From positions 2,343,561-2,407,560 of the forward strand of contig MU006089.1 in NCBI GenBank assembly GCA_010093705.1: a DNA stretch of 64,000 nucleotides. Reading direction: 5' to 3'. Below, piece by piece: positions 4,186 through 41,859 of this stretch. The notes beneath the pieces were generated by a model that saw only the letters and a list, made by a program, of their open reading frames with translations, ran no database searches and was not told where the DNA came from. The position numbers were made by a program, and so were the translations under genes. Within the stretch, counting starts at the first letter, position 1, and every line of letters begins with the position of its first letter. Source of the stretch: Patellaria atrata CBS 101060 (Eukaryota).

Positions 4186-4353
4186 CTTGACGAATATCAG
4201 TTCCTTCACTCTTTTATCTTTCTCCGTGAATAGTTTCTTGCTTCCCGTTTATTCTTTGTTCAGATATGTTCCTATGGCGCGGTAATCAGGAGTTCTTATG
4301 GCATTGGGGGCGCTTTGGGGACAACAAAGGCGCGTATTGGGTTTTTTTCTTGA

Positions 4354-4508
4354 NNNNNNNNNNNNNNNNNNNNNNNNNNNNNNNNNNNNNNNNNNNNNNN
4401 NNNNNNNNNNNNNNNNNNNNNNNNNNNNNNNNNNNNNNNNNNNNNNNNNNNNNNNNNNNNNNNNNNNNNNNNNNNNNNNNNNNNNNNNNNNNNNNNNNNN
4501 NNNNNNNN
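4354..4508. other. Assembly gap (N run)
   Basis: 155 N bases. Confidence 1.
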
Positions 4509-4882: not shown

Positions 4883-6949
4883 TCAATGCGTCTTCTCCAA
4901 AATCGCCTTAATCATCTCATTCCCAACCCTCGTCGCCTCCTCGAACCGCGGCGCGAAGTACTCGCTAATAGCCTCGAACTTGCGCCTGTAGGCTTCGTCG
5001 TTGCCGAGCGTGACGCGCTCGCTCCAGTCCTAGAAACAATATCACCGTCAACAATTAGTGTCTTAAACCCCAGGGAAAGGGGGGACTACCCTTGCCGCAA
5101 ATGTAAACTCCAAATCATCGGCTCGGAACGTGTTATCCTCGATCGCGGTTTCGATGGCTTCGTCGAGGAGCTCCGGCTTGCGGAAGAGGGATTCGGCTAT
5201 GCCGAGCCAGAGTCGGAAAAGCTATTGCGATAGCGAGGTGAGTCAACGCATCCGATCCCGCCCCAACCTTGAAGCAGAAATTGGGTTGGATGGGAGAAGG
5301 GGGTGCTTACGGGTGTGGAACAGATCATGTGGTCGTAGGGCACGATGCCCAGTTTCCACCAACAGTCCACCATGGCGAGGAGGGAGAGGTGATTATTCCG
5401 CACCCTCTCCTGCGGTAGCTCGCCAAGGGAAAACCGATCCAGCAATTCGTCTTTCAGCAATAATCCCTCATCTTCACCACCCCTTCCCTTCCACCGTGCA
5501 TTCCCGAACACCGCCTCTCCGGCCTCCTTGACCCGTCGGCTTAATTCTTCTCGCTGCCCCGCGAGCATGAGCTTGAAGAGCGCGGTGACGGACTCGGCGT
5601 ACTGCCCGATCTGGCGCCGCGCGGACGGGTTCAGCATCGCGAGGCCGGCGTACACGTGCCACTTGTTGCTGTAGATGCGTAGCGTCAGGTTGATCTTGAC
5701 GTTTTCGATGCCGCCGACGTAGCGTGGGACTTCCCAGGGAAACTGCGCGTTGGCACGCCAGGCGGCGCCCATGCTGGGGAGGTTGTGAGTATGGGTGGGG
5801 TTGGCAGATCGGAAAGGGGGTGAAGGCATAGAAAGGGGTTGGAGAATTAGGGAATGGAAAGGGGTTGGAATCGAGATGGTTAGGAGTACTAAGCGTGAAG
5901 CGGAAAGAGAGGGTGGGATGGAAATTGGGTCGGTATTGCTCACCTCAGGAAAGCGGCGTGGGTGACAGCTTGAGTGTCTGCCGTGATATGGTCGTGATCT
6001 GACGCGGACAGGTACACGAACTTAGAACCAAAGCAAGACAGCATCTTCTCTACTAGGGCAAAGCTCTCGTCTGAGGCACGGTGCTTAATGAGTACGAGCG
6101 GTTGTCCTCTTGGATCTACTCCAGGTCCGTGTAAAGAATGGCAGGATACAATCTCGACATCCTGTGGCAGGTGCTTTTCGAATGCTGCGATTTCTGGAGC
6201 TTTGCAAGACGTTTGACCACCAACGATAGCTCCCATCTTGGTTGCTTTGAATCAAACCACTATTAGCATGGATTGCTGAAGAGATGGGAAGCGGTTTTGA
6301 CATGCGTACAAGGACCGAATTGGGCAACAACATCATCAATGTTCTTAGCTGGCACGTTGTAGATAATATAGTCGCTGCATCTCGAGACGAGGTGACCGTT
6401 TTGCATTATGTTTACTCTCCCCTAACATGACCTCAGCATCTCCCTCTGTCTGAATTATATCTGTATATGCTCCTACTCTTCCAGCAAACTCCTTTTTCAA
6501 GGCCTCATAGGATTCTGGTCTATCACATCCATTGATCCTACATAGGAATCCTATCAGCGAATAAGTTCCGGCTAGAATATCTGGCTACTACCTCGATAGT
6601 GTCAGTATATATTCGAGATGTCTTAGTTTCGAAAGCAATGTATAATATATAAGGTTTCAGACCAAAAAAATAGTAAGGTAGCTGAGATATTACATCAGTG
6701 ACAACCCCCAGCTACCTTTGGGGCTAGAAAAGCTTCCAAAGTAGCTAGAGATCATACTCGAGCCAAATGCACTCAAGTCATCAGGACAGGATGATGGCGA
6801 TAGAAAAGTCTGATGACTTACCAATATTCTAGGACTCCCTGATGGCGAGATCGATCATTGACCTACCTCCATCCTGCATCACTAAGTCTTCTCGCGTACA
6901 TCTTCCCCATATCCCCCATACCAATAATACCTATACACTTTTCATCCAT
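4883..6949 (-). CDS. TYR1: Prephenate dehydrogenase (NADP+), 7 exons: 6949-6867, 6537-6477, 6421-6310, 6244-5944, 5773-5311, 5221-5090, 5029-4883
   Basis: Spliced translation gives MDEKCIGIIGMGDMGKMYARR (Rossmann fold), GGQTSCKAPE, SCHSLHGP, HDHITADTQAVTHAAFLSMG, YSNKWHVYAGLA, DHMICSTPLFRLWLG; all exon phases are consistent. Confidence 0.95.
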
Positions 6950-7298: not shown

Positions 7299-7948
<650 letters not shown>

Positions 7949-21274: not shown

Positions 21275-21345
21275 TGCATCGTGCGGGAATCGAACCCACG
21301 GCATTTGCTTGGAAGGCAAATATTTTACCACTAAACCAACGATGC
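21275..21345 (-). tRNA. tRNA-Gly(TCC), intronless
   Basis: Reverse complement folds to a cloverleaf: GCATCGT/ACGATGC acceptor, TTTGC-CT-TCC-AA-GCAAA anticodon arm, GTTCGATTC T-loop. Confidence 0.97.
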
Positions 21346-41750: not shown

Positions 41751-41859
41751 GTCTCAATGGTCTAGTTGGTTATGACATGGGTCTCATAAAATACTAATTT
41801 ATGACTCAATCTCAGATTGGGATATCCCGGGGTCCAGAGTTCGATTCTCTGTTGGGACA
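41751..41859 (+). tRNA. tRNA-Met(CAT), elongator type, 35-nt intron (41789-41823)
   Basis: Acceptor GTCTCAA/TTGGGAC, anticodon arm TGGGT-CT-CAT-A[intron]A-TCCCG with the T31:T39 mismatch typical of elongator Met, CAGAG-TTCGATT-CTCTG T arm. Confidence 0.92.

Follow-up and report, generated by a model that had tools for sequence, protein, structure and literature searches.

TYR1 intron 1 of Patellaria atrata as the host of a predicted box C/D snoRNA of the Nc CD1/snR13 family, nested within an inner intron of its own

The first intron of TYR1, the prephenate dehydrogenase gene of Patellaria atrata CBS 101060, is unusually long and contains a second set of splice signals; this raises the question of what the additional sequence is for. 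The gene lies on the minus strand of the 64,000-nt stretch of contig MU006089.1 analysed here (the window). The predicted TYR1 gene model yields a product with 100% identity to the deposited protein P0001 (432 aa). Two sequencing runs, from one sample and one study, contain the sequence as DNA contigs; these match the window exactly, may be its source and have no joints. A tblastn comparison of P0001 with the window places exon 1, coding for residues 1-28, at 6867..6949 (minus strand); its last codon is split (phase 2). Intron 1, the outer intron, covers 6538..6866 on the same strand (329 nt, GTAGGT...TAG), with the outer donor GTAGGT at 6866-6861 and the productive acceptor TAG at 6540-6538, and exon 2 follows at 6477..6537. 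The remaining TYR1 introns are 55, 65, 170, 89 and about 58 nt long. A sequence-only reading of this DNA had set the 329 nt of intron 1 against 50-100 nt for most introns; this holds, with one 170-nt exception among the TYR1 introns.

That reading also listed two perfect 10-bp stems, an inner consensus donor and a second branch point with acceptors, all of which were found on the minus strand where it had placed them. It offered two explanations: an unproductive-splicing element that may sense a metabolite or protein, or release of a structured ncRNA from an inner intron. The second is essentially right, in that the ncRNA is a predicted box C/D snoRNA and the nested signals are conserved, and the interpretation as a whole is partly supported. 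We consider it likely, with a probability of roughly 85%, that TYR1 intron 1 is the host of a box C/D snoRNA orthologous to Nc CD1/snR13 and nested within its own inner intron. TYR1 intron 1 would be unusually long because it carries this known snoRNA in an inner intron.

The predicted snoRNA spans 6654..6789 on the minus strand (ends approximate; its parts, below, are on the same strand), as placed by a covariance model and by string matches to Nc CD1. The span from box C to box D is 128 nt in Patellaria and 123-130 nt across 20 sequences. Box C (CUGAUGA, 6778..6784) and box D (CUGA, 6657..6660) are present in all 36 distinct orthologous introns, which share the position and phase of TYR1 intron 1 and are 249-486 nt long; in an 18-sequence alignment, GAUGA in box C and UCUGA at box D are invariant. 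The same alignment has three further invariant blocks. These are the D' guide GCAUUUGGCU (6761..6770), which is complementary to LSU rRNA; UGAUG in box C' (CUGAUGU, 6692..6698); and GCUACCU in the putative accessory guide GCUACCUUA (6674..6682), which would be an extra base-pairing region. The D' box is aligned at 6758..6762 as CUCGA (UCGA). In the window, GGCUCGAG follows the D' guide, while four of the 18 aligned sequences, from four loci, have a D' region of the N. crassa type (CUAGAG/CUAGA).

A U-rich spacer (6661..6673) precedes box D, and its sequence is variable among orthologues. The A(U)7GG at 6671-6662, previously read as an Sm-like site, is this spacer; it varies, for example by an interrupting A or C. 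No terminal stem is predicted beside boxes C and D. Between D' and C' there is an internal stem-loop (6700..6754) recognised by covariation: both-side changes are found in all 13 pairs, and 92.3% of cells are paired, compared with 19-43% for slid partners. Helix 1 of the model shows no covariation and therefore gives no evidence of structure.

The family to which this element is assigned is known already. Nc CD1 is a cloned N. crassa snoRNA of 125 nt (GenBank EU780925; Liu et al. 2009, PMC2780460, supplementary file 1). Table 1 of that paper gives its target as 26S-Am2242, reached through the D' guide with a 10/0 match, its homologue as snR13 and its location as 'Intron'; supplementary file 4 shows a 10-bp pairing of the guide with 26S rRNA (PMC2780460). 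The window agrees with the published Nc CD1 sequence in the string of box C plus D' guide, in box C', in the accessory-guide string and in box D; the D' guide 10-mer is thereby identical to the guide whose pairing is drawn for Am2242 of N. crassa 26S rRNA. The two are also alike in length class (125 nt, and 128 nt from box C to D here), in being intronic and in having a D' guide for an LSU adenosine. They differ in the D' box, which is UAGA in N. crassa and UCGA in Patellaria, and in the sequence of the internal hairpin. Neither the text of PMC2780460 nor its seven supplementary files, in which host, NCU and dehydrogenase were sought, names a host gene for Nc CD1.

The Rfam search that had been proposed as a check gave no family match for the intron element: with E up to 10, queries of 601 and 156 bases matched no snoRNA family, and there was no match to a riboswitch or other family above threshold. 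Over the whole window, Rfam finds tRNAs elsewhere and, at the intron, sub-threshold miRNA-like matches. Since all functional strings are shared with the cloned N. crassa member, the missing snoRNA match is taken as a gap in the Rfam models. A hit to a known snoRNA had been named beforehand as an outcome that removes the novelty of the ncRNA; the identity of functional strings with Nc CD1, and not Rfam, provides this match, and the novelty is therefore removed. The predicted Patellaria element is a new member of a known snoRNA family in an unusual, conserved nested-intron setting.

In yeast, snR13 is transcribed independently as a gene of its own, in contrast to the intronic element found here. 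According to the part of its description considered (PMC5389607), snR13 methylates A2280 and A2281 of 25S rRNA (domain IV), has a conserved UCGA/CUCGA D' box and uses an accessory guide. So described, the S. cerevisiae snoRNA resembles the Patellaria element in its UCGA/CUCGA D' box and would also do so in its 25S domain IV target and, given the putative accessory guide of Patellaria, in its accessory guide. The complement of GCUACCUUA has a single occurrence in E. coli 23S rRNA, which is not a fungal LSU rRNA, and there adjoins, on the 5' side, the segment homologous to the target. In viral contigs, a 16-mer complementary to both guides has six chance matches, none of them rRNA. The literature covered contained nothing relevant linking a snoRNA and prephenate dehydrogenase; the family and its hosts may be listed in the supplements of 'The fungal snoRNAome'.

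A covariance model of the snoRNA, R1, was run on the window and on 80 metagenomic TYR1 loci. The window has one match (6649-6792, minus strand, 125.8 bits, E 2e-24). Matches are found in 48 of the 80 loci, one per locus and always on the TYR1 strand. Of the 46 full-length matches, 45 have TYR1 exon 1 upstream and 45 have exon 2 downstream; the two misses are locus L051, whose contig begins too late, and L023, in which exon 2 was found by regex instead. One snoRNA-bearing locus has 96% protein identity to Knufia (Eurotiomycetes). Model R1 finds no snoRNA copy in intronless yeast-like TYR1 loci.

This distribution bears on the idea that the element is what remains of a MITE or other dispersed repeat, or else a gene transcribed independently from the opposite strand. 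The two perfect 10-bp inverted repeats would fit such an origin, as would weak miRNA-like Rfam matches on both strands, although these score 13.7-21.1 bits against gathering thresholds of 45.5-95.5. With a single model match per 64-kb window or orthologous locus, always on the TYR1 strand, such an origin is extremely improbable. The stem arms are present at chance frequency, which also speaks against the repeat/MITE alternative of the earlier reading: with up to one mismatch, the arm 10-mers have 6 and 7 matches in the 64-kb window, where 2.85 and 4.93 are expected, and 8 and 21 of 100 shuffles reach these counts. The sense-strand intron folds at -90.6 kcal/mol (z = -2.09), somewhat better than expected by chance, with 1 of 100 shuffles equally good; the antisense fold (z = -1.47) is no better than shuffles.

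The first of the two perfect stems pairs 6819-6810 with 6784-6775, and its 3' arm is also box C. The second pairs 6718-6709, which belongs to the 3' strand of the internal stem-loop, with 6684-6675, within which the accessory guide lies. The first stem gave rise to the proposal of a hairpin-locked donor comparable to the NMT1 TPP riboswitch: by opening or closing this hairpin, a ligand or protein would expose or mask the inner donor and thereby regulate TYR1 output through unproductive splicing. When the inner site is joined with the outer one, reading through from exon 1 does give AGG-TAG, an immediate stop, as had been claimed. The donor/box C duplex in Patellaria is also far stronger than in shuffles (-16.6 kcal/mol, z = -4.3). 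Across orthologues, however, p<=0.05 is reached by this masking duplex in the window alone (1 of 28 introns) and by the second stem in 2 of 36 introns. The conserved blocks are exactly the boxes and guides of the known snoRNA, with no conserved sequence left over as an aptamer, and no riboswitch or other Rfam family matches the element. A regulated switch is hence very unlikely. What the locus has in common with the NMT1 TPP riboswitch is merely the idea of a second, base-pairable donor; here there is no aptamer, no Rfam match and no conserved masking stem.

Both predicted 10-bp stems are specific to Patellaria, one formed with box C and the other with the accessory guide, and neither is a conserved switch. 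The result for conservation and covariation is accordingly divided: the snoRNA, its internal hairpin and the nested signals are conserved, whereas the two 10-bp stems are lineage-specific. There is an additional 9-bp repeat (6832-6824 with 6580-6572) which flanks the inner intron. Pairing of the flanking pieces was considered as a conserved feature and rejected, as it reaches p<=0.05 in just 2 of 28 introns.

Rather than lying directly in the TYR1 intron, the predicted snoRNA occupies a nested inner intron with a putative donor, branch point and acceptor of its own (all on the minus strand). The inner 5' splice site GTAAGT (6816..6821) is 37 nt upstream of box C and is separated from the outer donor by the 45-nt 5' piece of the outer intron (6822..6866), which is not conserved among lineages. 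On the other side, the inner branch point TACTGAC (6601..6607) has its A at 6602, 55 nt after box D. It is followed by a cluster of inner 3' splice sites, TAG, TAG and CAG (6581..6590, with the G's at 6588, 6585 and 6581); the inner acceptor lies about 70 nt downstream of box D. The 3' piece of the outer intron (6538..6580) carries the outer branch point GCTGAT (A at 6554) and the outer acceptor TAG. In N. crassa, the distance from the 5' splice site to the snoRNA is typically 41-60 nt, and processing also depends on how far away the 3' splice site is (PMC2780460).

The inner signals noticed in the window recur in orthologues. GT[AG]NG[TC] occurs once, 33-58 nt upstream of box C, in 29 of the 36 distinct introns; its density in that interval is 26.3 per kb, compared with 0.39 and 0.45 per kb elsewhere in the intron. 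Inner donors were scored by this regex; a matrix derived from outer donors penalised GTACGT and was poor as a general model. NCTRAY with its A 52-69 nt after box D is found in 34 of the 36.

Lineages were defined by the intron sequence outside the snoRNA. Clustering at 60% identity merged almost all introns (background about 50%), and thresholds of 65-80% were used instead; at less than 65% identity there are 25 intron lineages. The inner donor is kept in 22 of these, the inner branch point and acceptor in 22, and both in 21. The 5' and 3' flanking pieces have diverged to background similarity, while the distances of the inner signals are conserved across fungal classes.

These figures bear on a simpler reading, in which the same snoRNA is carried but a single splicing step at the outer sites removes the whole intron, and the inner donor and branch point never act as a splicing pair. 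The inner signals would then be kept for other reasons, for instance recruitment of U1 or a branch-point factor, or spacing for snoRNP assembly, or they would be decaying relics of an insertion. The outer sites are intact and yield the annotated protein, and one-step excision with them would release the snoRNA too. In seven of the 36 introns the inner-donor regex is absent: a group of four (L012/13/14/21) has the non-consensus GTTCGT, and three (L033, L011 and L016) have none. L033 and L011/L016, counted as three lineages without nesting on the 3' side, work with a simple 3' side; nesting is not obligatory for the snoRNA because of these. On the other hand, inner donor, branch point and an acceptor 10-17 nt later are all kept in 21 of 25 lineages, and conservation of the inner acceptor argues against a mere factor-binding site, which would need none. 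The inner donors are also closer to consensus than the outer ones: they are mostly GTAAGT, GTACGT, GTATGT or GTGAGT, while the outer donors have T at +6 in about 15 of 36. One-step removal is possible but on balance doubtful.

Given the conserved signals, the inner intron would be spliced in two steps with the outer one. Splicing of the inner intron first would yield the snoRNA. The remaining outer intron, 80-189 nt long in the 28 introns for which it was computed, would then be removed with the outer donor, branch point and acceptor, and exons 1 and 2 would be joined in frame. By analogy with the family, the excised intron would be debranched and trimmed by exonucleases to the mature snoRNA. 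With the box C/D proteins, the snoRNA would direct 2'-O-methylation to domain IV of the LSU rRNA, at one adenosine or at two adjacent ones. Another route considered was recursive splicing, with an AG|GT ratchet formed at the inner acceptor; it was rejected as a general mechanism, since GT follows the acceptor only in some loci (by eye, in the window, L034, L048 and L079).

Nested introns have been described in related systems, each with differences from this one. Stwintrons of Pezizomycotina are pairs of nested U2-type introns, for which consecutive splicing has been demonstrated in filamentous ascomycetes; in the accounts considered in part here, one of the outer splice signals (donor, branch point or acceptor) is split by the inner intron. 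The TYR1 intron resembles them in its nesting and in the consecutive removal suggested above. It does not have stwintron geometry: none of the outer signals GTAGGT, GCTGAT and TAG is interrupted, and 45 nt at the 5' end and 43-50 nt at the 3' end separate the inner intron from the ends of the outer one. The snR41-snR70-snR51 cluster of Euascomycetes undergoes stepwise splicing of a nested intron, and snoRNA-associated introns are described as 'excised and inserted' elsewhere, moving as units with their own splice signals, according to the part of Luo et al. 2013 considered (PMC3596301). As far as that part goes, the cluster is similar in that nested introns are tied to a fungal box C/D snoRNA; it differs in that its host is non-coding and the extra intron lies inside the snoRNA, whereas here a snoRNA-bearing intron lies within the intron of a protein-coding gene.

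The neighbourhood of TYR1 is also conserved. RPS14 (7300..7948, plus strand, from ORFs and sequence) is arranged head-to-head with TYR1, and about 350 bp separates the two start codons. A match to RPS14 is found on the opposite strand upstream of TYR1 in 28 orthologous loci, all 28 of which have the snoRNA. The head-to-head TYR1-RPS14 linkage is thus conserved, together with the predicted snoRNA, across fungal classes.

A more speculative reading, which we regard as rather unlikely, is that the nested intron is a device which uncouples snoRNA output from TYR1 mRNA output and which derives from an inserted mobile intron. The locus has a head-to-head promoter region in common with RPS14; its transcription at ribosome-biogenesis rates would serve to supply the snoRNA, and the inner intron would have canonical snoRNA-intron geometry. 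TYR1 mRNA would come only from transcripts that complete the slower outer splice with its weaker donor; other transcripts would retain the 5' and 3' pieces, with an immediate stop codon, and be degraded. On this account, a mobile snoRNA-bearing intron would have inserted in a short pre-existing TYR1 intron in an early ancestor of the Pezizomycotina.

The locus thus appears to hold an unannotated snoRNA gene which is missed by current Rfam models, and model R1 can be used to annotate the same element in TYR1 intron 1 across many Pezizomycotina. The snoRNA itself is ordinary. Its setting is more interesting: it has stayed in one and the same intron of a single amino-acid biosynthesis gene, next to RPS14, and the inner splice signals have been kept while their surroundings diverged to background. 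This provides a natural case in which to ask whether fungal intronic box C/D snoRNAs must lie at a set distance from the donor and branch point, and whether nested splicing can separate production of a snoRNA from that of its host mRNA.

The 154-aa exon translation of TYR1 (prephenate dehydrogenase; tyrosine biosynthesis) in the window is 100% identical to the deposited 432-aa Patellaria atrata protein P0001, in which ...DAGWR is joined to INGCDRPESYE...; this agrees exactly with the gene model of the earlier, sequence-only reading. Intron 1 lies at 6866-6538 on the minus strand, starts with GTAGGT and ends with TAG. At 329 nt it is long, as had been noted, compared with 55, 65, 170, 89 and ~58 nt for the remaining TYR1 introns. 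All elements attributed to it are present on the minus strand: an inner GTAAGT donor (6821-6816), an A(U)7GG run (6671-6662), an inner TACTGAC branch point (6607-6601), three AG acceptors ending at 6588, 6585 and 6581, and two perfect 10-bp inverted repeats. The sense strand of the intron 1 region folds slightly better than shuffled sequences (z = -2.09) and the antisense strand no better (z = -1.47); within the 64-kb window, the stem arms do not form a repeat family. The only public sequencing runs that contain this sequence are DNA contigs. Intron 4 (5774-5943, minus strand; 170 nt) is also longer than its neighbours, and is pyrimidine-rich with repeated CCC/TTTCC-type motifs. Elsewhere in the window, undetermined bases at about 4350-4500 give long X runs in ORF translations. 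Rfam identifies tRNA genes at 21275-21345 (minus strand) and 41751-41859 (plus strand); the second probably contains an intron, since it is 109 nt long.

The N-terminal halves of six Dothideomycete TYR1 orthologues were aligned and used to scan metagenome contigs; 278 loci (L numbers) were confirmed and 80 were kept for comparison. Many carry a long intron at the identical codon position and phase, after AGW-R/K. The 45 long introns (44 loci plus the window) reduce to 36 different sequences, which range from 249 to 486 nt and all have GT...AG ends. A few loci (L017/18, L035/36, L038, L077) have a short intron of 36-63 nt at this position, and yeast-like and cDNA-like TYR1 loci have none.

All long introns share one strongly conserved core. 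Its 5' part consists of xxGAUGA, an invariant stretch with GCAUUUGGCU, and CGAG or AGAG; a variable hairpin, invariant UGAUG, invariant GCUACCU, a U-rich stretch and UCUGA follow in that order. Judged by its motifs, this layout is that of a box C/D snoRNA: C, guide, D', hairpin, C', a second complementary element and D. A covariance model built from 18 sequences has a single match in the 64-kb window (6649-6792, minus strand; 125.8 bits) and matches 48 of the 80 loci, once per locus and always on the TYR1 strand; three of these loci are truncated at contig ends. Among 46 full-length matches, TYR1 exon 1 lies upstream in 45, the exception being L051, whose upstream sequence is missing; exon 2 likewise follows downstream in 45, and that of L023 was recovered by regex.

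The alignment of orthologous introns proposed earlier yields a conserved core, and the D'-C' hairpin within it covaries. Its structure is conserved while its sequence is not: changes on both sides occur at 13/13 pairs, and 92.3% of cells are paired, compared with 19-43% after the partners are shifted by 1-3 columns. This covariation was reached by 0/500 shuffles, in an alignment that was fitted to the covariance model and is therefore biased towards the modelled structure. RNAalifold, run independently on a MAFFT alignment, finds compensatory changes at 12/22 pairs. Helix 1 of the covariance model shows no covariation and is probably spurious. One locus of the AGY (instead of AGW) group encodes a protein 96% identical to that of Knufia (Chaetothyriales, Eurotiomycetes), the window is from a Dothideomycete, and several loci have an N. 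crassa-type D' variant; the snoRNA has therefore been retained in the TYR1 intron across the main Pezizomycotina classes.

The element corresponds to Nc CD1, a cloned 125-nt N. crassa snoRNA listed as a homologue of yeast snR13, with location 'Intron' and a D' guide targeting 26S-Am2242 with a 10/0 match (PMC2780460, Table 1). Nc CD1 (EU780925; PMC2780460, supplementary file 1) is identical to the window in the box C plus guide string, the C'-to-accessory-guide string and box D, and near-identical to loci L050 and L060. The same guide 10-mer is drawn pairing with 26S rRNA in supplementary file 4 of that paper. According to Van Nues and Watkins (PMC5389607), snR13 methylates 25S A2280 and A2281, has an unusual, evolutionarily conserved UCGA/CUCGA D' box, and requires an extra base-pairing region (accessory guide). 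A CUCGA D' box as described there is found at 6762-6758, and a 9-mer conserved in orthologues, a candidate accessory guide, at 6682-6674 (both minus strand). E. coli 23S rRNA contains a single complement of the 9-mer, immediately 5' of the segment aligning with the fungal target; this position, seen in the E. coli rather than the fungal LSU, fits an accessory guide that would pair beside the target. Because Nc CD1 shares the functional strings and the snR13 traits (CUCGA, conserved 9-mer) match, the intron element is assigned by sequence as the Patellaria orthologue of Nc CD1/snR13. The Rfam search that had been suggested returned no family for it, whether gathering thresholds or a limit of E up to 10 (601 or 156 bases) was applied; this is a gap in the models and not evidence against membership.

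Of the two explanations in the sequence-only reading, the second, an intron-hosted ncRNA, is borne out as a box C/D snoRNA of the Nc CD1/snR13 type. The element adds a new, so far unannotated member to a known snoRNA family; consequently the main part of its supposed novelty is lost, by the standard which that reading had itself set. The supposed Sm-like site is the spacer before box D.

The preferred explanation had been a riboswitch-like switch in which a hairpin locks the inner donor. Both perfect 10-bp stems (6819-6775 and 6718-6675) are Patellaria-specific. In the window, the inner-donor and box C regions form a duplex with z = -4.3, a pairing that reaches p<=0.05 in only 1/28 introns; for the duplex of the internal region with the accessory guide, the window gives z = -5.9, and p<=0.05 is reached in 2/36. 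Hence no conserved donor-masking hairpin is found among the orthologous introns compared, and the aligned introns offer no further conserved sequence that could make up an aptamer. The switch was rejected on both of these defining features. Each Patellaria stem pairs a functional snoRNA element with nearby sequence. In the first, box C and three further bases make up the 3' arm (6784-6775); in the second, the 3' arm (6684-6675) covers the accessory guide, and the 3' strand of the internal hairpin supplies the 5' arm (6718-6709). Because the 5' strand of this hairpin (about 6749-6737) nearly duplicates the accessory guide, the hairpin's 3' strand can pair with either.

Of the earlier observations, the nested splice signals hold up best. 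Exactly one inner donor, GT[AG]NG[TC], lies 33-58 nt upstream of box C in 29/36 distinct introns; the exceptions are L012/13/14/21, with GTTCGT at that place, L033, L011 and L016. Matches have a density of 26.3 per kb in this 31-nt zone, compared with 0.39 upstream and 0.45 downstream. An inner branch point, NCTRAY, has its A 52-69 nt after box D in 34/36 introns (by eye, L037 has CTCAC; L011 has none), and 32 of the 34 are followed 10-17 nt on by their own acceptor and then by a second branch point for the productive acceptor. When introns were clustered on their non-snoRNA parts at 65% identity (background about 50%), 25 lineages resulted; the inner donor is kept in 22, the inner branch point plus acceptor in 22, and both in 21. 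The distances from the snoRNA agree with those of N. crassa host introns, in which 41-60 nt separate the 5' splice site from the snoRNA and the 3' splice site distance is constrained (PMC2780460). The pieces between outer and inner sites show no sequence conservation; together they measure 80-189 nt (28 introns), an ordinary fungal intron size. Across the 36 introns, inner donors are mostly GTAAGT, GTACGT, GTATGT or GTGAGT, and outer donors frequently depart from the consensus at +4 to +6 (GTAGGN, GTAATT, GTAAGG).

Three lineages are simple rather than nested. In the 249-nt intron of L033, 51 nt separate the donor from box C, and the only branch point follows box D by 59 nt; L011 and L016 likewise have just one branch point, at a distance of 60 nt from box D on the 3' side. 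These lineages keep the geometry around the snoRNA and not the outer pieces. The 5' side of L011 and L016 is 284 nt long, without a consensus inner donor. In the N. crassa-like L050, L060 and L065, the 5' piece is long (110-126 nt) and has a branch point and acceptor 14-28 nt before the inner donor (both by eye), which hints at a further small intron or micro-exon-like segment.

Comparison of the orthologues demonstrates a conserved, predicted box C/D snoRNA of a known family in TYR1 intron 1, with inner splice signals at fixed distances and the outer signals intact. Splicing that joins an inner to an outer site leaves an immediate stop (AGG-TAG after exon 1), as had been predicted. The anatomy suggests that removal of the inner intron would precede that of the residual outer intron, since this is the sole productive use of the inner sites. 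The whole intron could instead be removed in one step with the intact outer sites, which we consider less likely; inner signals are maintained in most lineages. Stepwise removal has a precedent in the nested introns (stwintrons) of Pezizomycotina, which are spliced consecutively. In contrast to a stwintron, TYR1 intron 1 has no interrupted outer signal and so is not one. Luo et al. (PMC3596301) report stepwise splicing of a nested intron in a snoRNA cluster, and movement of snoRNA-bearing introns as units. By analogy with its family, the snoRNA would be trimmed from the excised, debranched intron and guide 2'-O-methylation in LSU domain IV.

RPS14 (7300-7948, plus strand) is head-to-head with TYR1 in the window. 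An RPS14 match is present in 29/80 loci, every one of them with the snoRNA, and at none of the snoRNA-less loci among the 80. It lies upstream on the opposite strand in 28/29 (in L047, downstream on the same strand), and is found in 26/30 snoRNA loci having >1200 nt upstream of TYR1. This arrangement links the snoRNA to the promoter region of a ribosomal-protein gene, and suggests that snoRNA expression may follow ribosome synthesis. Many human snoRNA host genes make NMD-sensitive splice variants, according to PMC4233243; by analogy, and more speculatively, nesting might uncouple production of the snoRNA from that of TYR1. Neither the nested-intron snoRNA architecture nor the TYR1-RPS14-snoRNA linkage was found described in the literature covered, which concerned snoRNAs in connection with prephenate dehydrogenase, nested introns and stwintrons. 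The remaining interest of the element lies in these two features, the conserved architecture and the linkage.
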